A DNA stretch of 24,002 nucleotides from a virus (taxonomy: Duplodnaviria; Caudoviricetes), in the IMG/VR virus record IMGVR_UViG_3300022178_000315, positions 1 to 24,002 of that record; one strand, written 5' to 3'. Numbering within the stretch: the first letter of the stretch is position 1; each line of letters begins with the position of its first letter. Under the pieces are notes generated by a model. That model was given only the letters and a program-made list of their open reading frames with translations, did no database searches and was not told where the DNA came from. The position numbers and the translations under genes were made by a program. Of the stretch, positions 2,577-24,002 are shown piece after piece.

Positions 2577-2799
2577 AGAACTTATAAAGGTGGCAAAAGA
2601 AAAGATCGTTGACTCAGAAGATGATATCTCTGCTGACAGACTTAAAAACGCTGCCGCTACAAAGAAACTTGCTATATTTGATGCTTTTGAAATATTAGCT
2701 AGAATAGAATCAGAAGAAGATCTTTTAAACGATAAACCAAAAACTAGCGCTATTAAAGCCGAAGAGTTTAAAGGTTTTGCAGAAGGAAGATCTAGATAA
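2521..2799 (+). CDS. Probable terminase small subunit
   Basis: 92-aa helical protein directly upstream of TerL and coupled to it by TAATG; overlaps the GroES-like gene by 56 nt. Function is inferred from position only. Confidence 0.5.
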   Translation: MKIKETKLNIIQAGQIAVEELIKVAKEKIVDSEDDISADRLKNAAATKKLAIFDAFEILARIESEEDLLNDKPKTSAIKAEEFKGFAEGRSR

Positions 2800-5015
2800 T
2801 GTATAAGCAAAATCTATACCATATAGTAGAAGACCATATAAAGTCAAACGTTCTAAGTAGAATGAATAGGCTTAAAAAATGGGAATACGGATACAATAAA
2901 GAGCATGACATAGTTGTCATAAGCAAAACAGGACAAATAGGAGAGATATATAGTATACAAAATCTATTAATAGCTCTTCCGTTGGCTGAAGACGTGTACA
3001 AGTGTTCTAAGAAGAAAGAAGAACAACGTTGGAAAGTTTTAGAATATCCATCTGAATTAAATAAAATAAAAACAGTTTATGATTGGAACGAAAGACCAGT
3101 CGAGTTTAAAGAAAAATGGTACGAGTACATTAACAAAGAGTTTGTTCGTCGCGAAGAAGGCTATTGGTTCTATAGCAACGGCGTTCCTACTTATATTACT
3201 GGTTCTCAGTACATGTACCTGCAGTGGACTAAAATTGACGTGGGGTCAGCAGATTTTCGCGAGTCAAACAGGTTATTCTACATATTCTGGGAGGCTTGTA
3301 AATCGGACAGTAGGTGTTACGGAATGTGCTATCTTAAGAACAGACGGTCTGGATTTAGTTTCATGGCATCATCCGACACAGTTAACCAGGCAACAATTTC
3401 AAGAGATGCTAGGTTTGGAATACTCTCCAAGTCTGGAGCTGATGCTAAGAAAATGTTCACTGATAAAGTTGTACCCATATCGATTAACTACCCCTTCTTT
3501 TTTAAACCAATACAGGACGGAATGGAACGTCCAAAGACAGAATTATCATACAAAGTACCTTCGAAAAGGCTCACGCGTAATTCCATCAAAGAAACAACGG
3601 AAGATTTACAGGCGGGTCTTGACACCACGATCGACTGGAAGAATACAGGGGACAACTCCTATGATGGAGAAAAACTCAAGCTTCTCGTCCACGATGAATC
3701 GGGTAAATGGGAAAGACCAGATAACATCCTCAACAACTGGAGGGTTACGAAAACAACGTTAAGATTAGGTAGAAAAATAGTAGGTAAGTGCATGATGGGA
3801 TCTACTTCAAACGCATTAGACAAAGGTGGATCAAATTTTAAAAAACTATACGAATCTTCGGACGTCACAAAAAGAAACCGCAACGGACAGACTAGCTCAG
3901 GATTATATAGTTTGTTCGTACCTATGGAGTGGAATTACGAAGGATACATTGATTCTTATGGAATACCTGTATTCGACACTCCAAAAAAACCAATTAAAGG
4001 TATAGATGGTGAAGATATAGATATAGGTGTTATATCACATTGGGAAAATGAAGTAGATGGACTACACGACGACCAAGATGGCTTAAACGAATACTATAGA
4101 CAGTTTCCAAGAACAGAGAAACACGCTTTTAGAGACGAAGCTAAAGAATCTTTGTTTAACTTAGGTAAAATATACGAGCAAATAGACTATAATGAAGACT
4201 TACGTAATACTAATGTTGTTACACAGGGTAATTTTCAGTGGGAAGGTGGGATTAAAGATACTAGAGTGCTGTTTGTTCCTAGTAAAAGTGGAAGATTTTT
4301 TGTTAGCTGGGTTCCTCCGGTTACACTACAAAATAGATACAATATAAAAAATAACGTTAAGTATCCTGGTAATGAGCACTGTGGAGCTTTTGGATGCGAT
4401 AGTTACGATATATCTGGTACTGTTGATGGTAAAGGTTCTAAAGGATCTTTACATGGATTAACTAAGTTTTCAATGGAAGACGTACCGCCTAACTTATTTT
4501 TTTTAGAATATATAGCTAGACCACAGACAGCTGATATATTTTTTGAAGATGTTTTAATGGCTTTGGTTTTTTATGGTATGCCTATACTAGCAGAGAACAA
4601 CAAGCCAAGACTCTTATATTATATGAAAAGAAGAGGTTACAGAGGTTACTCTATGAATAGACCTGATAGGGTTATGCATAAATTATCTGTAACAGAAAGA
4701 GAGATAGGTGGAATACCTAACTCAAGTGAAGACATAAAGCAAGCTCACGCAGCAGCTATAGAGGATTATATAGAAAACCACATTGGTTTACTAAACGAAG
4801 GTTATGGCAGCATGTACTTTCAAAGAACTTTAGAAGATTGGGCGAAATTTAATATAAACAATAGGACTAAGCACGATGCATCTATAAGCTCTGGTTTAGC
4901 TATGATGGCTTGTAATAAACATAGATACACGCCTGTCGCGCAAAGAGTAATATCTAAAGTATCTTTAGGTTTTAGAAAATATAACAATTCAGGTCAAAAT
5001 TCAAAAATAATATAA
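2799..5015 (+). CDS. terL: Terminase large subunit
   Basis: 738 aa with Walker A-like YLKNRRSGFS, Walker B LKLLVHDESGKW, coupling motif GSTSN, and RNase H-type nuclease motifs AFGCDSYD and KHDASISSGL; lies immediately upstream of the portal. Confidence 0.93.
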   Translation: MYKQNLYHIVEDHIKSNVLSRMNRLKKWEYGYNKEHDIVVISKTGQIGEIYSIQNLLIALPLAEDVYKCSKKKEEQRWKVLEYPSELNKIKTVYDWNERPVEFKEKWYEYINKEFVRREEGYWFYSNGVPTYITGSQYMYLQWTKIDVGSADFRESNRLFYIFWEACKSDSRCYGMCYLKNRRSGFSFMASSDTVNQATISRDARFGILSKSGADAKKMFTDKVVPISINYPFFFKPIQDGMERPKTELSYKVPSKRLTRNSIKETTEDLQAGLDTTIDWKNTGDNSYDGEKLKLLVHDESGKWERPDNILNNWRVTKTTLRLGRKIVGKCMMGSTSNALDKGGSNFKKLYESSDVTKRNRNGQTSSGLYSLFVPMEWNYEGYIDSYGIPVFDTPKKPIKGIDGEDIDIGVISHWENEVDGLHDDQDGLNEYYRQFPRTEKHAFRDEAKESLFNLGKIYEQIDYNEDLRNTNVVTQGNFQWEGGIKDTRVLFVPSKSGRFFVSWVPPVTLQNRYNIKNNVKYPGNEHCGAFGCDSYDISGTVDGKGSKGSLHGLTKFSMEDVPPNLFFLEYIARPQTADIFFEDVLMALVFYGMPILAENNKPRLLYYMKRRGYRGYSMNRPDRVMHKLSVTEREIGGIPNSSEDIKQAHAAAIEDYIENHIGLLNEGYGSMYFQRTLEDWAKFNINNRTKHDASISSGLAMMACNKHRYTPVAQRVISKVSLGFRKYNNSGQNSKII
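3079..3762 (+). CDS. Candidate overprinted gene (+1 frame of terL), lipoprotein-like
   Basis: 227 open codons in the +1 frame. Contains a KKAIGSIATAFLLILLVLST-C signal/lipobox-like segment (alternative TTG start at 3142) and an R/S/T-rich tail; the region is locally richer in C/G. Confidence 0.45.
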   Translation: MIGTKDQSSLKKNGTSTLTKSLFVAKKAIGSIATAFLLILLVLSTCTCSGLKLTWGQQIFASQTGYSTYSGRLVNRTVGVTECAILRTDGLDLVSWHHPTQLTRQQFQEMLGLEYSPSLELMLRKCSLIKLYPYRLTTPSFLNQYRTEWNVQRQNYHTKYLRKGSRVIPSKKQRKIYRRVLTPRSTGRIQGTTPMMEKNSSFSSTMNRVNGKDQITSSTTGGLRKQR

Positions 5016-5018
5016 TAA

Positions 5019-7427
5019 ATGGTCTACAATACTAATAATAGCATCTTTCCAGATCAGGTGGTACCTGAAGAAGAAAAGAAATCATTTGAATATGGTTTAG
5101 CTGTTGGAAACGCTATTGAACAAGAATGGTTTAGAAATAACAGTGGTCAGGATAGGTTTTCCTATAATTTCCAGAACTTCAATAGACTAAGATTATACGC
5201 TAGAGGTGAACAACCTGTACAGAAGTATAAAGATGAATTATCTAATAACGGTGACTTGTCTTATTTGAATTTAGACTGGAAGCCAATACCGGTTCTTTCT
5301 AAGTTTGTAGATATAGTAGTTAATGGCATGACTGAAAAGGGTTATGAAATGAAAGCTTTTGCTTCAGACCCATTTGCTTTAAAGCAACGTACTGATTTTG
5401 CTGCTAACGCCTTAAGAGACATAGAAAACAAAGAAGCTATAGATAGATTATCTCAAGCTACTGGTCAAAACTTCTATGCTTCTACTGATCCAGAAAACAT
5501 ACCTAGAGACAAAAACGAATTAGACTTAATGCTACAGCTTAACTACAAATTAAGTGTAGAAATAGCTGAAGAAGAGGTTGTTAGCAACGTGCTTAAGTAT
5601 AATAAATTTGATGAAATTAAAAAAAGACTAGCTTATGACCTTACCGTTTTAGGAATTGCAGCTAGTAAAACTAGCTTTAATCTTTCTGAAGGTATAACAA
5701 CTCACTACGTGGATCCAGCTAACTTAGTTTATTCAGCTACAGATGATCCTAATTTTGAAGACATTTATTATGTTGGAGAAATTAAAGCTTTAACTTTGCC
5801 TGAAATAAAAAGATTATTTCCTAATCTAACTAACGAAGAGTTAGAAACTATACAGAAGTATCCAGGTAGACAGAATTACGCTCAAAGCGATTGGCAGGTA
5901 AATAGTGATACAGAGAAACATCAGGTTTTATTTTTTGAATACAAAACGTATCACGATCAAGTGTTTAAAATAAAACAAACTGAACAAGGTTTAGAAAAAA
6001 CATTAGAAAAGCAAGACACATTTAATCCTCCTCCAAGTGATAACTTTGAAAGAGTGTCTAGATCTATTGAAGTATTATATACTGGAGCGAAAGTTTTAGG
6101 TATGGGAGATACTATGTTAGAGTGGAAGTTAGCTGAGAACATGACAAGACCTTACGCTGATACTACTAAGGTTAATATGAATTACTGTATATCAGCTCCT
6201 AGAATGTATCAAGGGCGTATAGAATCTATAGTTAGTAGAACAATAGGTTTCGCTGATATGATTCAATTGACTCATTTAAAGCTACAGCAAGTATTAGCTC
6301 GTATGGTTCCTGATGGAGTTTACTTAGACGTAGACGGGTTAGCTGAAGTTGACTTAGGCAATGGAACGAACTATAATCCAGCAGAAGCATTAAATATGTA
6401 CTTCCAGACCGGAACAATAGTAGGTAGATCATTAACTCAAGATGGCGAGATTAATCGTGGTAAAGTGCCAATTCAAGAGCTTCAAAGTTCTTCTGGTATA
6501 TCTAAAATACAAGCAATGATACAAACGTATCAATACTACTTGCAAATGATTAGAGATGTAACAGGATTAAACGAAGCTAGAGATGGAAGTTCTCCAGATA
6601 AAAACGCTTTAGTAGGTCTACAAAAACTAGCAGCAGCAAACTCTAATACGGCTACAAGACATATATTACAGTCTTTAATGTATATTACGATTAGAACATG
6701 TGAAAATATAAGTTTAAGGGTAGCTGATGTGTTGCAGTTTCCATTAACAAAAGCATCTTTACTTAATAGTATAAATGCTTTTAATGTAGCTACTCTAAAG
6801 GAAATAGATACTCTATCGTTACATGACTTCGGTATATTCTTAGATCTAGAACCAGACGAAGAAGATAAAGCCCAATTAGAAAAAAGCATACAAATAGCAT
6901 TGCAATCTGGAGCTATAAAACTTTCAGATGCTATAGATATAAGAGATATACAAAACATAAAGCTAGCTAATACATATTTGAAGTTTAGACAAACTGAAAA
7001 TCAAGAGGCTGAAAGAGCTGCACAGATGGAAAACATTCAGGCTCAAGCTCAAGCTAATAGTGAATCTGCTGAAAAAGCTGCCGAGGCTGAAGTTCAAAAA
7101 CAACAAGCTTTAGCTCAAACTACTGTTCAAATAGAGCAAGCTAAGTCTCAGTTTGAAATACAACGCATGGAGCAAGAGGCTGAAATAAAAAGAGGTCTAA
7201 TGGCTGAAGAGTTTTCATATCAAATGAAACTAGCAGAAATGCATGCTAAAGCTAATTCTCAAAAAGAAGCTCAAATAGAGGACAGAAAAGACAAAAGACT
7301 ACAAATGCAAGGCACTCAACAGAGTGAACTTATAGATCAAAGACAAAACGATCTGCTACCTAAAAACTTTGAATCAACTAATGACGGCTTAGGCGGTTTT
7401 GATTTAGAACAGTTTACCCCGAGATAG
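5019..7427 (+). CDS. Portal protein (crAss/P22-like podovirus type)
   Basis: 802 aa between TerL and scaffold/MCP, with a long Q/E/A-rich C-terminal coiled coil (barrel) and a MIRDVTGLNEARDGS motif typical of such portals. Confidence 0.88.
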   Translation: MVYNTNNSIFPDQVVPEEEKKSFEYGLAVGNAIEQEWFRNNSGQDRFSYNFQNFNRLRLYARGEQPVQKYKDELSNNGDLSYLNLDWKPIPVLSKFVDIVVNGMTEKGYEMKAFASDPFALKQRTDFAANALRDIENKEAIDRLSQATGQNFYASTDPENIPRDKNELDLMLQLNYKLSVEIAEEEVVSNVLKYNKFDEIKKRLAYDLTVLGIAASKTSFNLSEGITTHYVDPANLVYSATDDPNFEDIYYVGEIKALTLPEIKRLFPNLTNEELETIQKYPGRQNYAQSDWQVNSDTEKHQVLFFEYKTYHDQVFKIKQTEQGLEKTLEKQDTFNPPPSDNFERVSRSIEVLYTGAKVLGMGDTMLEWKLAENMTRPYADTTKVNMNYCISAPRMYQGRIESIVSRTIGFADMIQLTHLKLQQVLARMVPDGVYLDVDGLAEVDLGNGTNYNPAEALNMYFQTGTIVGRSLTQDGEINRGKVPIQELQSSSGISKIQAMIQTYQYYLQMIRDVTGLNEARDGSSPDKNALVGLQKLAAANSNTATRHILQSLMYITIRTCENISLRVADVLQFPLTKASLLNSINAFNVATLKEIDTLSLHDFGIFLDLEPDEEDKAQLEKSIQIALQSGAIKLSDAIDIRDIQNIKLANTYLKFRQTENQEAERAAQMENIQAQAQANSESAEKAAEAEVQKQQALAQTTVQIEQAKSQFEIQRMEQEAEIKRGLMAEEFSYQMKLAEMHAKANSQKEAQIEDRKDKRLQMQGTQQSELIDQRQNDLLPKNFESTNDGLGGFDLEQFTPR

Positions 7428-7456
7428 GGAATTATTAATTTTTATTATATTATATT

Positions 7457-8665
7457 ATGTCAGAAACAAAAGAAGTAAAATCAGAAGGAGAATTTAAATT
7501 AAAAAAGAAAACTTCAAAAATGAAAGGCCAAGGAAATGTTGTTCCTGAGGTTACTAAGATAGATTTAAGTAAAAAAACAGAAGAAGATGCCATTCAAGTC
7601 GGAGAAACAGAAACAGTGGTTGATGATAAACAAACCAGAGATTTACCAGAAATGGAAAAAGAAGTACGGAGCGACTCCAGTGAAGTTACTAAAATTGATC
7701 TCAAAGAAAAAATAGAATCACCTTTAGAATTAGTAGAAGATGAAAACGATAACCCTGAAGAGGTCACAATGGTTGGAGGCACTGAAGGTCCCGACACCCC
7801 ACAGGAACAAAAAGAAGTATTACCGCAAGCTCAAACACAAGACTACCCAGAAAATGTAGATAAACTTATTGAGTTTATGAAAGAAACTGGCGGAACTATT
7901 GACGACTACGCTAGGCTTAATGCTGATTATAGCGACGTTGACGGAGAAGCATTATTAAAAGAATATTACAAACAAGCTAAACCACATTTAAATTCAGAAG
8001 AAATTGACTTCGTAATTGAAGACTCTTTTAGTTTTGATGAGGATTTAGACGAAGCAAGAGATATTCGAAAGAAGAAACTTGCATATAAAGAAGAAGTTGC
8101 AAAAGCCAAAAGCTATTTGGAATCGCTTAAGGATAAATATTACGCAGAGATCAAGTTGAGACCTGGGGTTAATCCTGAGCAACAAAAAGCTACAGACTTT
8201 TTTAACCGATACAACGAAGAGCAGGCAGCTACCAAAGTTAACCAAGACAGATTTATTAGCCAAACAGACGAGCTTCTTAACAACGATTTCAAAGGTTTTG
8301 ATTTTAAAGTTGGAGAGAAAAAGTTTAGATATGGCATTAAAGATCCAGTTAAGGTTGCAGATAATCAAAAAGACATTTCCACGTTCATCAAGACGTTCTT
8401 GAATGACAAAGGAGAAGTCGTAGATACAAAAGGTTATCATAAAGCTTTGTATGCAGCGCGAAACGCAGATACTATTGCACAACACTTTTATGAGCAAGGA
8501 AAAACAGACGCCATAAAAGGACAGATTGCTAAGGACAAGAATATAACTACAGAACCTAGAAAAACACAAGATGGTAATGTATTTGTAAATGGATTTAAAG
8601 TAAAAGCTATTAGCGGGCAAGACTCTTCAAAACTTAAAATTAAAACAAGAAAATTTAACAATTAA
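7457..8665 (+). CDS. Capsid scaffolding/assembly protein
   Basis: 402 aa with a very acidic low-complexity N-terminal part, helical C-terminal part and basic C-terminus (KLKIKTRKFNN); located between portal and MCP. Confidence 0.7.
   Translation: MSETKEVKSEGEFKLKKKTSKMKGQGNVVPEVTKIDLSKKTEEDAIQVGETETVVDDKQTRDLPEMEKEVRSDSSEVTKIDLKEKIESPLELVEDENDNPEEVTMVGGTEGPDTPQEQKEVLPQAQTQDYPENVDKLIEFMKETGGTIDDYARLNADYSDVDGEALLKEYYKQAKPHLNSEEIDFVIEDSFSFDEDLDEARDIRKKKLAYKEEVAKAKSYLESLKDKYYAEIKLRPGVNPEQQKATDFFNRYNEEQAATKVNQDRFISQTDELLNNDFKGFDFKVGEKKFRYGIKDPVKVADNQKDISTFIKTFLNDKGEVVDTKGYHKALYAARNADTIAQHFYEQGKTDAIKGQIAKDKNITTEPRKTQDGNVFVNGFKVKAISGQDSSKLKIKTRKFNN
7587..7715 (+). CDS. Nested small basic protein (MPFKS-type), +1 frame within the scaffold gene
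   Basis: ATG 7587 to TAG 7713-7715 gives 42 aa: MPFKSEKQKQWLMINKPEIYQKWKKKYGATPVKLLKLISKKK. This resembles a recurrent small phage protein pattern MPFKSxKQRx(W/Y)...PEIA.(K/R)W. Confidence 0.65.
   Translation: MPFKSEKQKQWLMINKPEIYQKWKKKYGATPVKLLKLISKKK
7740..7859 (+). CDS. Second nested small basic protein, +1 frame within the scaffold gene
   Basis: ATG 7740 to TAG 7857-7859 gives 39 aa: MKTITLKRSQWLEALKVPTPHRNKKKYYRKLKHKTTQKM. Confidence 0.55.
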   Translation: MKTITLKRSQWLEALKVPTPHRNKKKYYRKLKHKTTQKM

Positions 8666-8676
8666 AATTAAAAATT

Positions 8677-10098
8677 ATGGCAATAGCACCTAATTTTGGC
8701 TCGATAGTACCATCGCAGTCACAACAATTATTACAATCGAACTACTTACAGTTCAATAACAGCACGTCTGACTTTGCTCAGCAATATCTACCTGAAATCT
8801 ACGAACAAGAAGTAGAGCGTTACGGAAACAGAACTTTATCTGGATTCTTACGTATGGTTGGAGCTGAAATGCCAATGACGTCGGATCAAGTTATTTGGTC
8901 AGAACAAAATAGATTACACGTTGCTTACGACGGATGTACCAATGATGACGCAAACGGTATTGGAATTCCAGTAGCTGCTGGTATTGTAAACGTTATTTCT
9001 CCCGGCCAAACTATCGTTCTTATGGACGCCGCTGGTGTTGAGTTGAAAGCTGTAGTTACATCTTCAAACCCAGGAACTGGCGCTTTAATCGTAGCCCCTT
9101 ATACTGCTGCTAATACAGCTGCACTTGCTGCGACTGGAATTAAGATATTTGTATACGGTTCTGAATTCAACAAAGGATCTCAAACAACTAACTGGGATGG
9201 AGCTGCTGGAGCAATCACGGGAACTACTAATGTTAGTATTGACCCTACGTTTACTCAATTTAGCAACTCACCAATTATTATTCGTAGCAATTACAGTATC
9301 AATGGATCTGACATGGCTCAAATCGGTTGGGTTGAAGTTGCAACTGAAGACGGAACTTCTGGATACTTATGGTATTTAAAAGCAGAATCTGAAACTCGTT
9401 TACGTTTTGAAGACTACTTAGAAATGAGTGTAGTTGAAGGAGAACTTGCTGCTGCAGGATCTGGAGCTTTAGCTGGAGGATTTAAAGGTACGCAAGGTTT
9501 ATTTGCTGCTGTAGAAGCTAGAGGTAACGTTGAAACTGCATTTAGTGGAGCTAACTTAACTGACTTTGATAATATCTTGAAAAATTTAGATACTCAAGGA
9601 GCGATTGAAGAGAACATGCTTTTCTTAGATCGTACAACTTCATTAGAAATTGATGACATGCTAGCTGGTATTTCTGCAGGAGCAAACGGAGGTACTGCTT
9701 ATGGATTATTTGAAAACTCTGAAGAAATGGCATTAAACTTAGGGTTTAGCGGTTTCCGTAGAGGATCTTACGATTTCTATAAAACAGACTGGAAATATCT
9801 AAATGACGCGTCAACTCGTGGAGCAACAACTGGAATTTCTTCTATTGAAGGAGTATTAGTACCAGCTGGAACTTCTACTGTTTACGATCAAATTTTAGGA
9901 ACTAACATCCGTAGACCATTCTTACACGTGCGATACAGAGCTTCTCAAACAGAAGATCGTCGTATGAAGTCTTGGTTAACTGGATCTGCTGGTGGTGCTT
10001 TCACTTCTAGTTTAGATGCAATGGACGTTAACTTCTTATCTGAAAGATGTTTAGTAGTACAAGCTGCTAACAACTTTGTATTGTTCAAAGGAGCATAA
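8677..10098 (+). CDS. Major capsid protein
   Basis: 473 aa after the scaffold, with highly biased codon use and a following terminator. Motifs QQYLPEIYEQEVERYGNR, GTQGLFAAVEARGN and GFSGFRRGSYDFYKTDWKYLND are typical of capsids of Bacteroidota podoviruses (HK97 fold inferred). Confidence 0.88.
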   Translation: MAIAPNFGSIVPSQSQQLLQSNYLQFNNSTSDFAQQYLPEIYEQEVERYGNRTLSGFLRMVGAEMPMTSDQVIWSEQNRLHVAYDGCTNDDANGIGIPVAAGIVNVISPGQTIVLMDAAGVELKAVVTSSNPGTGALIVAPYTAANTAALAATGIKIFVYGSEFNKGSQTTNWDGAAGAITGTTNVSIDPTFTQFSNSPIIIRSNYSINGSDMAQIGWVEVATEDGTSGYLWYLKAESETRLRFEDYLEMSVVEGELAAAGSGALAGGFKGTQGLFAAVEARGNVETAFSGANLTDFDNILKNLDTQGAIEENMLFLDRTTSLEIDDMLAGISAGANGGTAYGLFENSEEMALNLGFSGFRRGSYDFYKTDWKYLNDASTRGATTGISSIEGVLVPAGTSTVYDQILGTNIRRPFLHVRYRASQTEDRRMKSWLTGSAGGAFTSSLDAMDVNFLSERCLVVQAANNFVLFKGA

Positions 10099-10104
10099 AC
10101 AATT

Positions 10105-10152
10105 GGTAGACTTACCCTCGTTGAATCTACGGGGGTAATTCTTACCTTTATT
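10105..10152 (+). terminator. Rho-independent terminator-like hairpin after MCP
   Basis: Stem TTACCCTCGT (10112-10121) / ACGGGGGTAA (10129-10138, one G-U pair) with a 7-nt loop, an outer imperfect GGTAG/CTTACC extension, and a T-rich tail. Confidence 0.75.
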
Positions 10153-10175
10153 AAACTATTAAATTTTATTATATT

Positions 10176-17408: not shown

Positions 17409-17426
17409 TAACAAGTAATAATATAA
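17409..17426 (+). promoter_or_regulatory. Candidate phage promoter motif, copy 2 (TAACAaGTAATAaTATAA)
   Basis: 16/18 identical to 10938..10955; ends 1 nt before the ATG at 17428. Confidence 0.4.
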
Positions 17427-17427
17427 T

Positions 17428-18882
17428 ATGGCTGGAGTAATAGAAGTTAAATTTTTTAACAGTTTTATACTGAGAAAAACTCTTGATGCGTTAGATATTC
17501 CTGTGTGGAATGGCTCTAGAGGAGATGGCACGTATCCACCAGATGCAAATCCAGCCGTATCTAACGACGCTAATTGGGCTATTGAAGAAGCTAGAATAAC
17601 AGGTGGATACAATAATACGCAAACAGATATAGGTGTAAAAGCTTATTTAACTGAAAGCGAGCCTAACGCAGTGTTTAAAACCAATAGTATGATATACTCA
17701 GGTATATTTAATTCTAGAACAGGTATAAACGATACTAACGTATTTTCAGTTGGAACAGATATAACTAAAAGTGTAAATCCAGCACATGGTTCTATACAAA
17801 AACTATATGCAGAAGATACTAACTTAATAATATTTCAAGAATCCAAAGTAAGTCGCGCTTTAATCGATAAAGATGCCATTTACTCAGCGGAAGGAGGTCA
17901 AATATCTACCGTAGGAAATGTTGTTATTGGACCTGTAACTGCTTATGCTGGTGATTTTGGAATAAGTAGAAACCCCGAAAGTTTTGCTATTTACGGTAGA
18001 AGAAAATACTTTACAGACAAGAATAGAAACGTACTTTTAAGACTTTCTAATGATGGTTTAACTGAAATATCTAATTATGGTATGTCTGACTTCTTTAGAG
18101 ACGAATTAAGTGCTTTAAATGGCAACGCAAGCACGTCAACAGGTAAAGCCGTAGGAGCTTGGGATATTCACTCAAGACAATATGCACTGTCTTTACAAAA
18201 ATACGTTACTCCTGGCTCTCCGCAAGTGTTTAAAACTCTTTCTTTCGATGATAGCGTGAATGGATTTCCTAGTTTCTTTGATTATGCTCCGGATCACGGT
18301 GATAGCATTAAAAACGAATACTACACTATTAAAGACGGTAGTATGTGGCTGCATTATAGTCCTACCGCTTTAAGATCTAACTTCTACGGAACTCAATATA
18401 AGTCTAGCATACAGTTTGTTTTTAATCCTAAAGTTAGTATGTCTAAAGTTTTTAAGACTATCAACTACGAAGGAGGAAATGGTTGGGAAGTAAATGCATT
18501 TCAATCAGATATAACTGGAATACATAGTATTGGTGCTCCAGAAGGTGCTTTGAATGACGAATGGGAATTAGGAACTAGAGATACAACGGCTTTAGTGTAT
18601 AGCTATAATCAAGGATCTTACGACAACTATGGTAATACATTTCCAAGTCAATTAACTCCTCCAATAAATCACGCTGGTTTTGATCGTAAAGAAAATAAAT
18701 ACATGTCTAACTTAATAAACAATAGTCCAGCCGCAGCTGGTGAAGTTATGTTTGGAGCTGACATGACGGGTATAAAAGGTTACTTTGCAACAGTAACAAT
18801 GTCTACAGATAACGTAACTGACGTAGGCGGAATGAAAGAATTGTTCGCAGCGTCTTCAAGCTATGTAGAGTCATCATATTAA
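17428..18882 (+). CDS. Tail muzzle/stabilisation protein, C-terminal beta-propeller-like part
   Basis: 484 aa with GSIQKLYAEDTNLIIFQESKV, GISRNPESFA...YFTD...LRLSNDGLTEIS.YGM and SKVFKTINYEG motifs corresponding to the C-terminal half of crAss-like muzzle proteins. Confidence 0.7.
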   Translation: MAGVIEVKFFNSFILRKTLDALDIPVWNGSRGDGTYPPDANPAVSNDANWAIEEARITGGYNNTQTDIGVKAYLTESEPNAVFKTNSMIYSGIFNSRTGINDTNVFSVGTDITKSVNPAHGSIQKLYAEDTNLIIFQESKVSRALIDKDAIYSAEGGQISTVGNVVIGPVTAYAGDFGISRNPESFAIYGRRKYFTDKNRNVLLRLSNDGLTEISNYGMSDFFRDELSALNGNASTSTGKAVGAWDIHSRQYALSLQKYVTPGSPQVFKTLSFDDSVNGFPSFFDYAPDHGDSIKNEYYTIKDGSMWLHYSPTALRSNFYGTQYKSSIQFVFNPKVSMSKVFKTINYEGGNGWEVNAFQSDITGIHSIGAPEGALNDEWELGTRDTTALVYSYNQGSYDNYGNTFPSQLTPPINHAGFDRKENKYMSNLINNSPAAAGEVMFGADMTGIKGYFATVTMSTDNVTDVGGMKELFAASSSYVESSY

Positions 18883-18892
18883 ATTAAATTAA

Positions 18893-19306
18893 ATGGAATT
18901 AAAAATACGTAAACTAGAGGAGTCTGATTGGGATACTTTGGTTAGTCTTTGGAATATGTGGCCCGATTGGCAGCATCATCCTCCTAAAGCGCTGCTTCCT
19001 GAAAACGGAACCGGTGGACTTATAGTAGAAAAAAACGAGCAACCAATAATAGCTGGTTTTATTTACACTACTAACTCTAAAATAGGATGGATGGAGTGGT
19101 TGGTTTCTGATCCAAACTACAGAGAAAGTGATAGAAAAGAAGCTACTAAGATGTTGATATCAGGATTAGAATATGTAGCTAAAATAAGCGGCTGTGAGGC
19201 TGTTATAAGTATAGGTAGAAATGAAAGTTTAATGGAAATACACAAGAGTTTGGACTATACAATAGATGAAGAACCTTCTTATGAAATTTCAAAAAAAATA
19301 ATATAA
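18893..19306 (+). CDS. GNAT-fold protein (T7 gp13-like position)
   Basis: 137 aa with LKIRKLEESDW, IIAGFIY, WLVSDPNYR and HKSLDY in acetyltransferase-fold order; lies between the tail and ejection genes. Confidence 0.65.
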   Translation: MELKIRKLEESDWDTLVSLWNMWPDWQHHPPKALLPENGTGGLIVEKNEQPIIAGFIYTTNSKIGWMEWLVSDPNYRESDRKEATKMLISGLEYVAKISGCEAVISIGRNESLMEIHKSLDYTIDEEPSYEISKKII

Positions 19307-19307
19307 A

Positions 19308-20033
19308 ATGGCATTAGTAACAGCAGCAATAATTGGAGGCATAGCAGCGGTAGCAGGTAGCACTATAGGTGCTGTTTCGGCCGGCAAAGCCGAAAGAAGG
19401 GCTAGATCAGATAAAAACAGACTCACTGGTGAGCTAGAAGAGTTAGAATTAAAACGACAAGACATTATAAACCCCTATGAGGGTGTAACAGATTTATCTA
19501 GTATGGTATCTGATTTAAGTAGTATCGCTTCTAATCCTTATCAAAACTTAGCTGTATCTACTGCGGCTGCTGAGATGCAGATAGAAGAAGCTGATATAGC
19601 TTTAGCTAATACTCTAGATACTCTTAGAGCTACTGGTGCTAGTGCTGGTGGAGCTACTGCTCTGGCTAGAATGGCATTGGAAAGTAAAAAAGGCGTATCA
19701 GCTAGTATAGAACAACAAGAGGCTGACAATCAAAGATTAAGAGCTAGCGGCGAAGAAAGACTTCAAAATGTTGAGTTAAACGAAGCTAAAAGAGTTCAAT
19801 CTGGATTAATGGGTGAAGCTCAAAGAATACAAGCTGTTGAGGCTGATGCTGAGTTATTCCAGTTTGGTCAAAAAGAAAAAAGAGAAAAAGAGCAACTTAA
19901 TAGAAAACAGTCTCAAATAACAGGAGCGGCAATGCAAGAAGGAGCGGCTGTTGAAGCTAAAGGAGCTGCTATAGGTGGTGGAGTTTCGGCTGTTGGTAAT
20001 TTAGCTGGATCTTATATGGGTGCAAAAGGTTAA
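19308..20033 (+). CDS. Internal virion / DNA ejection protein
   Basis: 241 aa with G/A-rich hydrophobic N- and C-termini, a central coiled coil and a GASAGGATALA motif; position follows the GNAT-like gene. Confidence 0.65.
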   Translation: MALVTAAIIGGIAAVAGSTIGAVSAGKAERRARSDKNRLTGELEELELKRQDIINPYEGVTDLSSMVSDLSSIASNPYQNLAVSTAAAEMQIEEADIALANTLDTLRATGASAGGATALARMALESKKGVSASIEQQEADNQRLRASGEERLQNVELNEAKRVQSGLMGEAQRIQAVEADAELFQFGQKEKREKEQLNRKQSQITGAAMQEGAAVEAKGAAIGGGVSAVGNLAGSYMGAKG

Positions 20034-20040
20034 TCAAAAT

Positions 20041-21201
20041 ATGGAAGCAAAACAAAATACTTTTACATCTGTAAATAAAGAAGCTAATAAGATATGGACA
20101 AGCGCTATAGGCGATTTAGGTCTAGATACTATTGAGTCTATAAATAAAAACAAAGCCTTTATGTCTGCTTCTCAAAAAGAAGCCGCTACAGTGCAACGTG
20201 ACATATCTGCAAAGCTTTTTGACAATCAAGAAGAAGCTTTAAATAGTATGAAAAAAGGTGGTATTAGGAACCCATCTTTAGCTAAATTAGGTAATGACTT
20301 AATATGGGGAATATACTACGCTGATGCGGCTGTTTCTCAGGCTAAAACTAGACAAGAAAGAAATGACGCTAACATAGCTTTGTCTAAATTAAACAAATCC
20401 CTTCAAGAGCTTTATAAGATAATAGAGATAGGTAAAGATACTGATGCTATTTTCATGCAAGAATATTTTGGACTAGAAGGATCCAAAAATCCAGGTCAAC
20501 CAGGTGGTATGGCTTTAGTTGGTAGAGATACTCCGCTATGGTGTAAGACGATGGCAATAAGAAGCGGTTTAGCTGGTGATAGTGCTAGTGAAGAATATAT
20601 TGTTGGTGATAACAGCGAAATAAGATTAAGATACACTGGATCTATCTTAAATGGAGAGGCTGTAGATAAACCAGCTTTAACATGGTTAGCTTATGATCCT
20701 GGCATTATATTGGATTTAAAAAGTGAGAACATAAAAATGCTTCAAGCTCCAAGTGCTTTAAACGCTGATGGAGAACAAGTTGGTATTATAGACAGTAGCT
20801 TACAGTATAACGATGCTTACTTATTATTAGATCAAAAGTACATGGAAGTATCTAAAGACGGTAAAACTCAAACAGAGTTTATACCTGCTAACATGGCTAA
20901 AATAGTATACGACACAAAAGCTAGATCTGCAGCTAGAGCAAACGCTTTGTTAAATGACTATCAAGAAGCTAATAGAGTTTGGAGAAATAACTTTAACATG
21001 GAAGAAGATCTTAAATTTGCAGTAGCAGCTAACGGTAAAAATGTAGACGCAGGACAGCAAGCTGAGTTTCAAGAGCTTATGTTTGGTAGCTTAAAACCAT
21101 TGTTACCTACGGTAGCAGTTGGTGCAACTACAGAGGTAGTTAAAGAAGTACAACCTGAGATGGTTGAAGAAGAAGCATTAACAGCAGATCAATTTAACTA
21201 G
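20041..21201 (+). CDS. Putative internal virion / ejection protein
   Basis: The ORF track starts at GTG 20020 inside the previous gene; the in-frame ATG at 20041 after TAATCAAAAT is more plausible (386 aa). Largely helical; function is inferred from position. Confidence 0.55.
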   Translation: MEAKQNTFTSVNKEANKIWTSAIGDLGLDTIESINKNKAFMSASQKEAATVQRDISAKLFDNQEEALNSMKKGGIRNPSLAKLGNDLIWGIYYADAAVSQAKTRQERNDANIALSKLNKSLQELYKIIEIGKDTDAIFMQEYFGLEGSKNPGQPGGMALVGRDTPLWCKTMAIRSGLAGDSASEEYIVGDNSEIRLRYTGSILNGEAVDKPALTWLAYDPGIILDLKSENIKMLQAPSALNADGEQVGIIDSSLQYNDAYLLLDQKYMEVSKDGKTQTEFIPANMAKIVYDTKARSAARANALLNDYQEANRVWRNNFNMEEDLKFAVAANGKNVDAGQQAEFQELMFGSLKPLLPTVAVGATTEVVKEVQPEMVEEEALTADQFN

Positions 21202-21202
21202 T

Positions 21203-21450
21203 ATGTATACATATAAAGATAGAGAGTTAACTAAAGAGCAGGTAGATAAACTCGCTGCTGAAAAAGGTGTTGAAGTTAATGTTTTTTTAACTAACAACCC
21301 AGATATAAAAATACAAGAGGCGGTAGTAGAAACTACTGAACCAGAGGGAAAGACAACAGCCACAGAAACGGACACGTCTGTGGATGCGATCGAAGTGTCC
21401 GGTACGGAATCACAATCGGAAGATGGTTCTTTGGAATTAAAAGAAACTAA
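21203..21450 (+). CDS. Predicted 82-aa transframe (-1 frameshift) product of the giant gene
   Basis: 50 zero-frame residues ending ...TTEPEGK, then the -1 frame from 21352 reads DNSHRNGHVCGCDRSVRYGITIGRWFFGIKRN, with TAA at 21448-21450. Confidence 0.6.
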
Positions 21451-24002
21451 ATATAAAACTCCTTTAACTTTAGAAGAAAAGAAATCTTTACAAAACAATC
21501 AGTTTTCTAAACAGATGTCTAAAGAAGATAACTTTACTAAAGAAAGACTTGAAGAGTTAACCAAACAAAAAGAAGATATAGTATCAGGCTATGATACTAT
21601 AATAGAAAGAGAGTTAGGTGTAAATGAGGTTACTGATTTTTTTGGAGATCTATATAGGGCTGGAGAACAAGGTTTTGAACAAGCTAAAGCCGTTGATCCT
21701 AGTATAGATATATATAGAGCAGGAAAAGAGACTTCTGACGAGCAAATAATAAAATGGATTGAAACAAATAAAAGCATTGCAGATAAAAATAAAGAATCTG
21801 AAGAAATGCAAAGTTTTAATAAAATATATAAAGAAAATGGTGGTGGTTGGCTAGGGTTCGTAAAAGGAGTTGCTAAAAATCCTTCTACTTTATCTTCAAT
21901 GTTAGTAAGTTCTATGACCACTCAATTAGGATCTTTACAGTCTGAAGAAGTTTTAGCTTCGGCAGCCGCGGGTGGAACCGCTGGGGCAGCTGGAGGATCT
22001 TTATTCGCCGGAATAGGCGCTATACCAGGTGGATTAGCTGGCGCTATGAGTGGCACTATGACAGCTATGGAAACTGGATTGACTTTTTCTGAACTATTAA
22101 CCGAAGAAGTAGGTGAGGATATTGACGTTGACAAAGTTAGAAAAATTTTAGAAAATCCAAAAAAACTAGCTGAATTAAAAAACAAAGCATTAGGAAGAGG
22201 TATTGCTATAGGCGCTATTGAATTAGCTACGATGGGATTAGCTAAAGGTGTTGGAGGAAAAATAGCTAAAGCTGGGTTTAAAGGAGCTAAACCAACTGGA
22301 ATCGCAGCTGCTGGGGCAGTTGAAGTCGTTGGCGGAGGAACAGGTGAAGTTGCTGGAAGATTTGTAGCTGACCAAGAAATGGATATTGCTGAAATAGGTT
22401 TTGAAGCTTTTGCTGGTTTAGGCAGTGCTCCTGTAACTATAGCTAGTCAATTAACAGATTTAGGCAGAAATGTAGATATAGCAAATTTAAACAAGTTTTT
22501 AAATGAAACTAACTATAAAGAAGTTACAGAAGCTTTTTTACCAGAAGTTGAAACTTCTGAAGCTCAAGTTAAAATGGCTCAAAGCAAAAACGCTGTTGAT
22601 ATAATAGATAAAAAGCTAAAACAAGAGGTTATTGACGGTGTTAAAACACCTGAAGAAGCAGATGCTGTTGCTTTAAACTTTAGAGAAACTCAAGGAGCTG
22701 TAAACCAAATAAAACCTTTAAAACTTTCTACAAAAGATCAGGCCACGGCTGTTCAGTTGATGAAAGAAAAGAAACAACTTAGCAACGAAATAAAACAAGT
22801 TGGTGAGGCTAATTTAACTATAGAGCAATCTAATAGAATTAAAGAAATAGATAATGATCTAAAAAATATTGGTTCTAAAGCTGTTACGCAGGAAGTTGAA
22901 AAAGTTAAAAAAGCTGCTGAAAGCATTAAAGACTTAGATGTTCAAGAATTTGCAAGCACAGAAGAAACAGAAGCTTTTTTAAATAAACAAAATCAAGATC
23001 CTAAAGCGTCTGGTCAACAAGGATTTATAATTCAAGATCCTAAAACAGGTAAGCAAACTATTGTAATAAATAGAGAAATAGCTGACAAAGAAATAGCCGT
23101 TGCCGCACCGTCTCACGAGTTTTTACATGCGTTATTATTTCAAACTGTCAAAGACAGTCCTGAAACGCAACTAGCGTTAGGTAATTCTTTAAAAGAATAT
23201 ATAAATAAAATAGACGTTGACAAGGTAGTTAAAGATAGTAATTTTGCTAAAAGATTAGAACAATATAAATCTGATCCTGAGGCTGTGCAAGCTGAAGAAG
23301 TTTTAACTTTATTTTCTGACGCTATTAGAACTGAAGATATTAAGTTTAATGAAACTGTTTTTACTAAAGTTGGTGATGTTATTCGTAAAGCCCTACAAGC
23401 TTTAGGTGTTAAAGTTAAGTTTAATAACGGTAAAGACGTTTATAACTTTATAAAAGACTATAATAAAAGTTTAGAATCTACTGGACTTACTAAGGCTCAA
23501 GTTAAAGCTGCAGAAGGAGTTACAGGTGAGTTAGTTGCTGACAAGGTTAAAACAGACGAGCAGATTATAAAAGAGTCTAGATCTGAAGAAGCATCCGCAA
23601 GAGTTCAAGAATTGTATGACACACAAGGTGAAGCTGCTGCGTTTGACATTATAGAGCAGTTCAAACCTATAACTAGTAAGATAGTAGAAAAAAGATCTGA
23701 AGCCCCAGGCTTTGACCGTCAGCTACTTACAGACGAAATAGAAACTGGCAAGCGAGGTATATTAGATTTAATTAAAGAATATAAACCTGAAATGAAAACA
23801 CCATTAGCTGCCTGGATAAATAAGTTTTTACCAGCTAGAGCTATTGAAGCATCAAAAAGAATACTAGGTAAAGAATTTACTGATGATATTACCGAAGCTA
23901 AAGGTGTTGCCGCTGAAGAGGTTAGCGTTGCTGAAAAACCTATAGACAAATCAACTACATCTAAACTAAGAAGAGTTCTTGGAATAAAACAAGGTGATGC
24001 TA
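21203..24002 (+). CDS. Giant internal virion (polyvalent/ejection) protein, 3'-partial, with glycine-zipper segments, HExxH zincin and a sigma70 region-2-like segment
   Basis: Not in the ORF track because it has no stop in the window. ATG 21203 opens MYTYKDRELTKEQVDKLAAEKG... and stays open for 933 codons to the window end. HEFLH is at 23114-23128, the downstream EEV at 23294, and the sigma-like stretch at about 23633-23866. Confidence 0.85.
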   Translation, partial: MYTYKDRELTKEQVDKLAAEKGVEVNVFLTNNPDIKIQEAVVETTEPEGKTTATETDTSVDAIEVSGTESQSEDGSLELKETKYKTPLTLEEKKSLQNNQFSKQMSKEDNFTKERLEELTKQKEDIVSGYDTIIERELGVNEVTDFFGDLYRAGEQGFEQAKAVDPSIDIYRAGKETSDEQIIKWIETNKSIADKNKESEEMQSFNKIYKENGGGWLGFVKGVAKNPSTLSSMLVSSMTTQLGSLQSEEVLASAAAGGTAGAAGGSLFAGIGAIPGGLAGAMSGTMTAMETGLTFSELLTEEVGEDIDVDKVRKILENPKKLAELKNKALGRGIAIGAIELATMGLAKGVGGKIAKAGFKGAKPTGIAAAGAVEVVGGGTGEVAGRFVADQEMDIAEIGFEAFAGLGSAPVTIASQLTDLGRNVDIANLNKFLNETNYKEVTEAFLPEVETSEAQVKMAQSKNAVDIIDKKLKQEVIDGVKTPEEADAVALNFRETQGAVNQIKPLKLSTKDQATAVQLMKEKKQLSNEIKQVGEANLTIEQSNRIKEIDNDLKNIGSKAVTQEVEKVKKAAESIKDLDVQEFASTEETEAFLNKQNQDPKASGQQGFIIQDPKTGKQTIVINREIADKEIAVAAPSHEFLHALLFQTVKDSPETQLALGNSLKEYINKIDVDKVVKDSNFAKRLEQYKSDPEAVQAEEVLTLFSDAIRTEDIKFNETVFTKVGDVIRKALQALGVKVKFNNGKDVYNFIKDYNKSLESTGLTKAQVKAAEGVTGELVADKVKTDEQIIKESRSEEASARVQELYDTQGEAAAFDIIEQFKPITSKIVEKRSEAPGFDRQLLTDEIETGKRGILDLIKEYKPEMKTPLAAWINKFLPARAIEASKRILGKEFTDDITEAKGVAAEEVSVAEKPIDKSTTSKLRRVLGIKQGDA
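21346..21401 (+). other. Predicted -1 programmed ribosomal frameshift signal: slippery heptamer plus H-type pseudoknot
   Basis: In-frame G_GGA_AAG (21346-21352), 7-nt spacer ACAACAG, stem 1 CCACAGA (21360-21366)/TCTGTGG (21377-21383), stem 2 CGGACAC (21369-21375)/GTGTCCG (21395-21401). Confidence 0.8.

Follow-up and report, generated by a model that had tools for sequence, protein, structure and literature searches.

To our knowledge, phages begin transcription by one of two routes, using either the host holoenzyme or an RNA polymerase (RNAP) of their own that is packaged in the virion. phiEco32/7-11, SPO1 (gp28), and T4 (gp55) reportedly encode stand-alone sigma factors, by which the phage gives the host core enzyme its promoter specificity, and these act after infection and on middle and late genes. 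Here, we describe a sigma-2-like segment in a giant putative cargo protein that would, unlike such factors, arrive in the particle and act first. It is encoded by a 24,002-nt stretch of DNA from an uncultured marine phage (the window), which is the entire IMG/VR record IMGVR_UViG_3300022178_000315 and is open at the contig end within the giant open reading frame (ORF).

The closest described systems are phi14:2 gp65-67, crAss001 gp47-50, and the N4 virion RNAP. According to the accessible part of one study, crassvirus cargo genes follow the muzzle gene in the gene numbering (gp44, then gp45 to gp50; PMC10172136), and the corresponding slot of phi14:2 holds a zincin plus a virion RNAP, as far as the available text of the phi14:2 report goes (bioRxiv 2020.03.07.982082). 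As at these loci, the giant gene described here comes after a muzzle gene and two cargo-type genes, has a zincin in or beside it, and is proposed to act at the start of early transcription. In contrast to them, no polymerase was found; the cargo would instead confer specificity on the host core enzyme, and early transcription would be rifampicin-sensitive, unlike that of phi14:2. Polyvalent proteins with MPTase domains, whose peptidase is proposed in the accessible part of the source to free the modules (Iyer et al. 2017, PMC5512222), share with the giant protein an HExxH motif with a downstream glutamate, a late-gene neighborhood, swappable modules, and proposed self-processing; they differ in that the word sigma is absent from the main text of PMC5512222 in its accessible part, and that no named LPD domain was matched here. 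A virion-carried sigma was not found in the literature searched, where most subscription journals fall outside coverage. Based on the analyses below, we regard the segment as a genuine, strongly diverged sigma-2 in a novel context and the system as a probable variant of virion-delivered early transcription.

A sigma-2-like segment in a giant putative cargo protein

The sequence-only reading of the window had proposed a sigma-70 region 2-like domain of the FliA/SigB type. The 78 residues that it quoted are the exact translation of positions 23633-23866 on the plus strand (amino acids 811-888 of the 933-amino-acid ORF at 21203-24001), and the motif is conserved in homologs: across five relatives, identity over amino acids 791-890 is 89, 87, 77, 66, and 43%, and over the first 250 residues it is 40, 39, 12, 21, and 20%, respectively. 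In four of the five pairwise comparisons, the sigma-2-like stretch is the most or equal-most conserved part of the N-terminal 933 amino acids. Using a profile of 35 sequences, we detected the domain 95 to 560 amino acids past the HExxH motif in 185 of the 207 long-enough homologs (E < 1e-4), a figure in which the profile members are themselves counted; we used the fixed-profile count, because iterative widening made the profile drift into the zincin. None of 224 shuffled control regions matched. Thirteen of the 22 misses belong to a clade with an insertion of ~50 amino acids between regions 2.2 and 2.3 (the insertion clade), and a second profile matches these at E <= 1e-21.

Family searches gave little or nothing. 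Neither the window protein nor the segment alone had a Pfam match, the gathering score of PF04542 not being reached, and single-sequence searches against PHROG and the PDB neither named the domain nor gave a sigma match in the PDB. PF04542 matched 3 of the 35 profile members (best E 0.032); among 40 relatives, it matched the giant ORF itself in 4, below cut-off (E 4e-4 to 7e-3). Searching the PDB with the profile retrieved FliA 13-88 (E 0.0073), SigE-N (E 0.047), pro-sigmaK, and RpoS, with unrelated matches among the 30 rows; a designed kelch repeat, which is a summed artefact, ranks above FliA and SigE-N. The nearest Atlas cluster is viral, with 54% Sigma70_r2 and a score of 0.96.

We then compared predicted structures. 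The model of the window domain has a predicted local distance difference test (pLDDT) value of 78 overall and ~90 across the core. RNA-polymerase/sigma entries make up 46 of the 48 Foldseek matches listed, none at E <= 0.001. With VIA-align, 17 sigma-2 chains rank first with middling Z scores of 6.5-8.5, and the first non-sigma chain has Z 6.5. The top chains include Staphylococcus aureus SigB (8x6g_H; Z 8.5, root-mean-square deviation [rmsd] 5.3, 95 residues aligned), sigma28/FliA (6pmj_F; Z 8.4, rmsd 3.5, 82 aligned), and sigma70 (1sig; Z 8.2, rmsd 2.5, 86 aligned), and the other closest solved sigma-2 structures are 9wsf_A (sigma28/FliA), 8hkc_E (sigma32), and 8b3z_A (SigE-N). For a second model, made from the closest relative (L001), the top 30 VIA-align rows are all sigma chains, with a best Z of 8.5-8.6 across both models. 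The sigma-2 helical fold was found in both predicted models, and the proposed likeness to FliA and SigB, although remote, is supported by the profile search, by the two top VIA-align chains, and by the L001 model.

At the residue level, the region 2.2 glutamate and the region 2.3 aromatic (Y/W/F) align with those of sigma-70, but a 3-residue insertion blurs the register in region 2.2; the aromatic position is kept in most alignment rows, and the domain lacks the tryptophan dyad of primary sigmas. In sigma-70, the acidic residue of region 2.2 is a core-binding residue. The segment shares with sigma-70 domain 2 (PF04542) the helix arrangement, a G-hydrophobic-x-x-x-[YF]-x-P turn, the region 2.3 aromatic, and its pairing with a -10-like hexamer in which A-11 and T-7 are retained. 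It differs in its identity of 8-19%, which is under the Pfam cut-off, and in lying inside a late-arm giant protein of 1,800-3,600 amino acids; whereas a full sigma-70 factor continues with sigma-3/4, a helical domain without a recognized family is found here. Because several lines of evidence, each modest, add together, we conclude that the segment very probably folds as a diverged sigma-70 domain 2.

The giant proteins form a large family. In eighty IMG/VR loci, 62 ORFs end in a stop codon, and these have 1,777-3,593 amino acids; the closest relative, L001, has 2,428 amino acids and is 87% identical over the region, and 845 clusters (50% identity) match the zincin-plus-sigma region. A tblastn search of 50,697 phage records with the window giant protein and the 2,428-amino-acid L001 protein gave no match, and the giants of the syntenic MW202828, Panino, and elemoE were matched by neither domain profile. 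The common plan begins with a variable N-terminus that has a Gly/Ala-rich stretch, followed by the zincin and, ~150 amino acids farther on, the sigma-2-like segment. A second domain comes next, and a variable middle connects it to a C-terminus of 690 conserved residues.

An HExxH motif is present in all 80 homologs, and the L001 zincin has a weak Pfam match (E 0.056). As in polyvalent proteins of the MPTase type, HExxH is accompanied by a downstream glutamate, whose helix is visible in the window protein, by a late-gene context, and by variable modules. The protease had been taken for an adjacent gene; instead, HEFLH (amino acids 638-642) marks a domain within the same giant protein. K-[FYLM]-S motifs repeat at module borders of the giant proteins. 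Among the 123 proteins with such a motif more than 150 amino acids past the domain start, the first one lies 300-339 amino acids downstream in 37 and at 514-539 amino acids in 13, mostly of the insertion clade. Judging from gene position only, the giant protein is likely packaged in the virion and injected. The zincin may process its own protein at K-x-S motifs.

We note that the giant ORF of L024 carries an AAA_33/zeta-toxin-like kinase module (amino acids 831-995; E 5e-15) between the zincin and the sigma-like domain, inserted at a K-[FYLM]-S-type module border. L024 and L029 had been considered as domain-less, and this was dropped, as by eye both retain the sigma-2-like domain after an inserted module.

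Search for a phage RNA polymerase and stand-alone sigma factors

The sequence-only reading had also suggested that the domain might serve a virion RNAP encoded further downstream, for which we found no support. The catalytic D[FYLM]DGD motif occurs in none of the 80 homologous giant ORFs (three carry an unrelated DLDID), a search of complete relatives gave no catalytic motif either, the beta-prime family PF00623 was not matched in any of five complete relatives, and queries with phi14:2 gp65-67 found no similarity, so that the features of a crAss-like virion RNAP are missing in these searches. Similarly, 16 full-length giants have no match to RNAP families including PF00940, and PF00940 was not matched in the five complete genomes in a search without a positive control. 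It is still conceivable that the domain serves an unrecognized phage polymerase, in the giant protein or elsewhere, considering that the same genome slot holds a zincin plus an RNAP in crAss-like phages and N4, and that ~800 variable and 690 conserved C-terminal residues of the giants have no family match; given the searches above, we consider this very improbable. Because no RNAP was found and the early motif described below is non-host, the phage would need a transcription-start factor of its own.

Relatives also encode a separate sigma of ~254 amino acids with regions 2 and 4, on the arm opposite to the giant gene, which is of the same kind as the phage stand-alone sigmas. It was detected with PF04542 in all five records of one set and in 19 of 40 in another, including 12 of the 14 that are at least 90% complete. 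Its gene adjoins an array of class I promoter-like sites (see below) and lies downstream of them. Comparing the profiles of the virion domain and the stand-alone sigma gave a probability of 2% (E 0.023), and these sequences provide no evidence of a recent duplication linking the two.

Three relatives deviate with respect to this gene. G042 has a third, ECF-like (extracytoplasmic function) sigma gene next to it (19117-19320, locus L101; 201-amino-acid frame, PF04542 E 2e-13). In G004 (8520-9258), the stand-alone sigma is apparently split into ORFs of 113 and 123 amino acids by a frameshift or an assembly error, and in G020 (41051-41827) it is very divergent, with ~0.12 similarity to others.

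Early promoter-like motifs and their co-variation with the virion module

All promoter evidence comes from relatives, as the window has no early arm and its own early promoters lie outside view. In an unbiased gapped-repeat scan of 24 contigs or part-contigs, a motif ending in GATAAT was among the top repeats in 15. Pattern searches for this class I motif (YAC-N22-GATAAT) identified 96 sites in 19 genomes, leaving out one stray match in G002; all 96 are on the early-arm strand, mostly directly 5' of small ORFs, and no site was found in G003, G031, G032 (part), and G034. When GATAAT is set at -12 to -7, YAC lies at -37 to -35 in 93 of the 96 sites. At positions that had not been selected for, A is found at -6 in 95 sites and a purine at +1 in all 96, compared to 36% and 58%, respectively, for 1,550 other GATAAT occurrences. 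Sigma-70 promoters have a well-established geometry that includes A-11 and T-7. By these base counts, class I is promoter-like with sigma-70 geometry and retains both bases. Under a looser rule, 42 of another 59 loci (two of which repeat earlier genomes) had at least two class I sites, and most of those without sites had <2.3 kb of upstream DNA.

The translation signals resemble those of Bacteroidota: 29 of 972 ORFs have Shine-Dalgarno-like signals, and 611 of 972 have A at -3; the relatives and the lack of Shine-Dalgarno signals suggest that the host is a member of the Bacteroidota. The flavobacterial sigma-A box is given as TAnnTTTG at -12 to -5 in the accessible part of PMC9723704. Class I differs from this box at four of six fixed positions, and 5 of the 96 sites fit it in the best shifted register. 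TAnnTTTG boxes are present in phi14:2 DNA 5' of g070 and g075, unlike class I. Class II (GT[AG]A[CT][AT]ATA) is noisier than class I, has a GTAAA-like word at -34 in 28 of 120 sites and YAC in none of the 120, and is located on the late strand in 77 of the 120, as well as directly after the stand-alone sigma gene.

Several loci show variants of these patterns. The early motif of G020 (TACGTTACA..GTGATAAT) mixes features of class I and class II. In L208 and L210, the 10 kb that precede the stand-alone sigma hold 15-20 GATAATA but a single class I site each, possibly reflecting other variants of the upstream element. The early arm of the syntenic phage MW202828 (MW202828.1 43745-55154, locus L172) has 15 copies of the palindrome GTGTCGTTAACGACAC 5' of early genes, a different private early signal, and its 3,859-amino-acid giant has two HExxH motifs and no sigma-2 match. 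An N4-like RNAP as the reader of this palindromic repeat was considered and rejected, as the giant has no match in the PDB or to RNAP families in Pfam.

We next compared promoter similarity with protein similarity in 12 genomes by Mantel tests, leaving out G001, G004, and G041 (stand-alone sigma truncated, split, or not recovered), G028 (terminase not recovered), and G016, G019, and G024 (one to two sites each). The correlation (rho) is 0.76 for the virion sigma-2, 0.61 for the module, 0.49 for the stand-alone sigma, and 0.38 for the terminase; the promoter thus follows the virion sigma-2 best, although the stand-alone sigma gene physically adjoins the promoters. G042 is discordant: by its stand-alone sigma it belongs with clade A (0.72-0.74), but by its module and its promoter with clade B. 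Likewise, G007 and G014 have the closest modules and promoters in common, and the stand-alone sigma of G007 is nearest to that of G009. For individual bases, we used 33 genomes, from which 13 of 30 further genomes without an A2 match were left out and G057 was dropped (match in a 401-amino-acid frame). G at -13 is found in 58 of 60 sites in the 10 genomes with the sigma-2 type of the window (L[AS][AG][YW]IN[KT]) and in 36 of 147 sites in the other 23. Genomes with identical stand-alone region 2.4 can be opposite in -13 G: 5/5 sites in G005 versus 1/6 in G047, 5/5 in G009 versus 0/6 in both G017 and G042, and 6/6 in G060 versus 0/10 in G055. In these sequences, the base at -13 changes with the type of the virion sigma-2 rather than with the stand-alone region 2.4. 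The upstream element belongs to the ACAA type wherever the second domain is of the A type (24 of 24 genomes), and in 2 of the 9 other genomes.

These data bear on the possibility that the stand-alone 254-amino-acid sigma reads both classes after a leaky start by the host polymerase, with the virion domain being structural or a chance helical look-alike. This sigma has regions 2 and 4, adjoins the class I array, and correlates with the promoters, and the scores of the virion domain are weak. We nevertheless consider it distinctly unlikely, since the same region-4 helix occurs in G042 with CACGGA sites and in G016 with one TACAGA site, the gene lies downstream of the class I sites, and the virion domain is the stretch conserved as described above. 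Similarly low odds apply to the injected sigma-2 being a decoy that shuts off the host by occupying core RNAP, or by absorbing an anti-sigma or a defense sensor, without reading DNA. Polyvalent proteins carry assorted conflict effectors (PMC5512222, accessible part), the kinase module of L024 is inserted at the same junction, and the tryptophan dyad is lost; a decoy would account neither for the non-host early motif nor for the way in which this motif varies with the module, and most alignment rows retain the region 2.3 aromatic.

The upstream element may be read by the second domain. A model of the 336-amino-acid module comprises the sigma-2, a disordered linker, and a confident helical domain of 195 amino acids; in L001, this domain has about 195 amino acids, and its C-terminal border is a K-F-S motif. 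Structure searches, run jointly with sigma-2, gave it no named fold. The ACAA counts make it a candidate reader of the upstream promoter element. Alternatively, the module may be a co-factor that sits on the core enzyme or holoenzyme and on the upstream element, leaving the opening of the -10 box to the host sigma-A or the stand-alone sigma. Consistent with such a co-factor, the last T of GATAAT and the next bases loosely resemble TAnnTTTG (32 of 96 sites with at most one mismatch), no sigma-3/4 was recognized in the module, and the -10 boxes of class I and class II are alike. We consider it unlikely, as a sigma-2 fold would, by established knowledge, take the same clamp site as any sigma, and the -13 base tracks the virion sigma-2 type instead of the stand-alone region 2.4.

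The best explanation, which we consider probable, is that a diverged, predicted sigma-70 domain 2 in a likely injected giant protein acts as a phage early sigma on host core RNAP. The giant protein would be ejected with the DNA, like crassvirus cargo, and the zincin may cut it at recurring K-[F/E/Y]-S motifs, freeing a module of ~330 amino acids. Its sigma-2 would dock on the beta-prime clamp of the host core and open GATAAT at -12 to -7, and the second domain, replacing sigma-3/4, would read the upstream YAC element at -37 to -22. The early arm would then produce the normal 254-amino-acid sigma, which would read class II (GTAAA..GT[AG]A[CT][AT]ATA) for middle and late genes. The fuller version, to which we give an even chance, is that a large group of uncultured aquatic Bacteroidota phages inject a protease-freed two-domain sigma that fires private early promoters on host core. 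Its sigma-2 would determine the specificity at -13/-10, and a new domain other than sigma-4 would read the upstream element. The suggestion in the sequence-only reading that the domain redirects host RNAP is supported in part, indirectly, by the co-variation between the module and an early promoter-like motif of non-host type, while its virion-RNAP variant is not.

Several observations weigh against this explanation, beginning with the restriction of the promoter evidence to relatives. The similarity to sigma-2 falls under every curated cut-off, and helical bundles can reach Z 8.5 through a common arrangement. The second domain has no sigma-4 match in Pfam, PDB profile, or Atlas searches. When controlling for the module, the stand-alone sigma retains a partial correlation of 0.44 (p 0.013) and the terminase one of 0.47. 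Moreover, -13 G is fixed as well in 4 of the 23 genomes whose sigma-2 is of another type, and the genomes are related, so that the counts are not independent but inflated by relatedness, and the Fisher p of 1e-5 is nominal. The -10 boxes (GATAAT versus RAYWAT) are alike and overlap in G020, and one sigma might read both. G003 (99% complete by CheckV) and G034 (92%) have the domain and no class I array. Finally, phi14:2 has -35/-10-like middle promoters that are read by the host polymerase, according to the accessible part of bioRxiv 2020.03.07.982082. We note that G003 is apparently chimeric despite its 99% rating, with two tail/cargo gene sets and no early small-gene region.

If this explanation is true, a packaged sigma would add a third route for starting infection to those by the host holoenzyme and by a virion RNAP. 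Early expression would be independent of the host sigma state, the host sigma could be displaced at entry, and the virion sigma would open a cascade of two sigmas. Module and promoter variants that go in pairs would offer an in vitro test system and possibly orthogonal sigma/promoter pairs for Bacteroidota.

Gene content of the window

The window has the content of a podophage late arm, with genes for terminase, portal, capsid, and a muzzle-domain protein, two genes in cargo position, and the giant ORF (Table 1). Its capsid and portal are 46-52% and 27-49% identical, respectively, to those of flavobacterial phages (Elemovirus, Maribacter phage Panino, and Cellulophaga and Tenacibaculum phages) and of one uncultured spring phage. 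Syntenic "structural protein" genes also precede the giant gene in MW202828, Panino, and elemoE, and, by analogy of position, the 241- and 393-amino-acid products are probably cargo proteins 1 and 2.

Table 1. Features of the window and the basis of their assignment
Feature	Position	Strand	Basis or remark
Terminase, portal, putative scaffold, and major capsid genes	2799..10098	+	Late arm, flavobacterial-type podophage
Class II (candidate middle/late) promoter-like site GTAATAATA, 5' of muzzle gene	17415..17423	+	
Tail-tip protein with crassvirus muzzle C-terminal domain	17428..18882	+	PF25729 E 4e-12, above cut-off
Two genes (241 and 393 amino acids), cargo protein 1/2 slot	19308..21201	+	Position
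Giant putative cargo/ejection polyprotein, N-terminal 933 amino acids, ORF open at contig end	21203..24001	+	PHROG 32588 E 6e-48
Zincin-like metallopeptidase motif HEFLH (amino acids 638-642) and downstream glutamate helix (amino acids 697-701)	23114..23305	+	
N-terminal helix of sigma-2-like domain, region 1.2-like position	23555..23632	+	Model helix H4-38
K-E-S boundary motif, amino acids 790-792	23570-23578	+	Sequence motif
Core of sigma-2-like domain, regions 2.1-2.4, amino acids 811-888	23633..23866	+	
Acidic linker, then start of second conserved helical domain	23867..24001	+	Candidate reader of upstream promoter element

A hairpin (TTACCCTCG...CGGGGGTAA) at 10099-10175, 3' of the capsid gene, is kept in at least 11 relatives and may be a terminator or a processing signal. 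The muzzle gene is separated from the cargo genes by a gene of 137 amino acids (18893-19306); a similar-sized gene 5' of the cargo genes in MW202828 is annotated as an N-terminal acetyltransferase subunit. A GroES-like gene lies 5' of the terminase (1971-2576), and relatives also have a GroEL/GroES-like pair (G001, 38749-40549).

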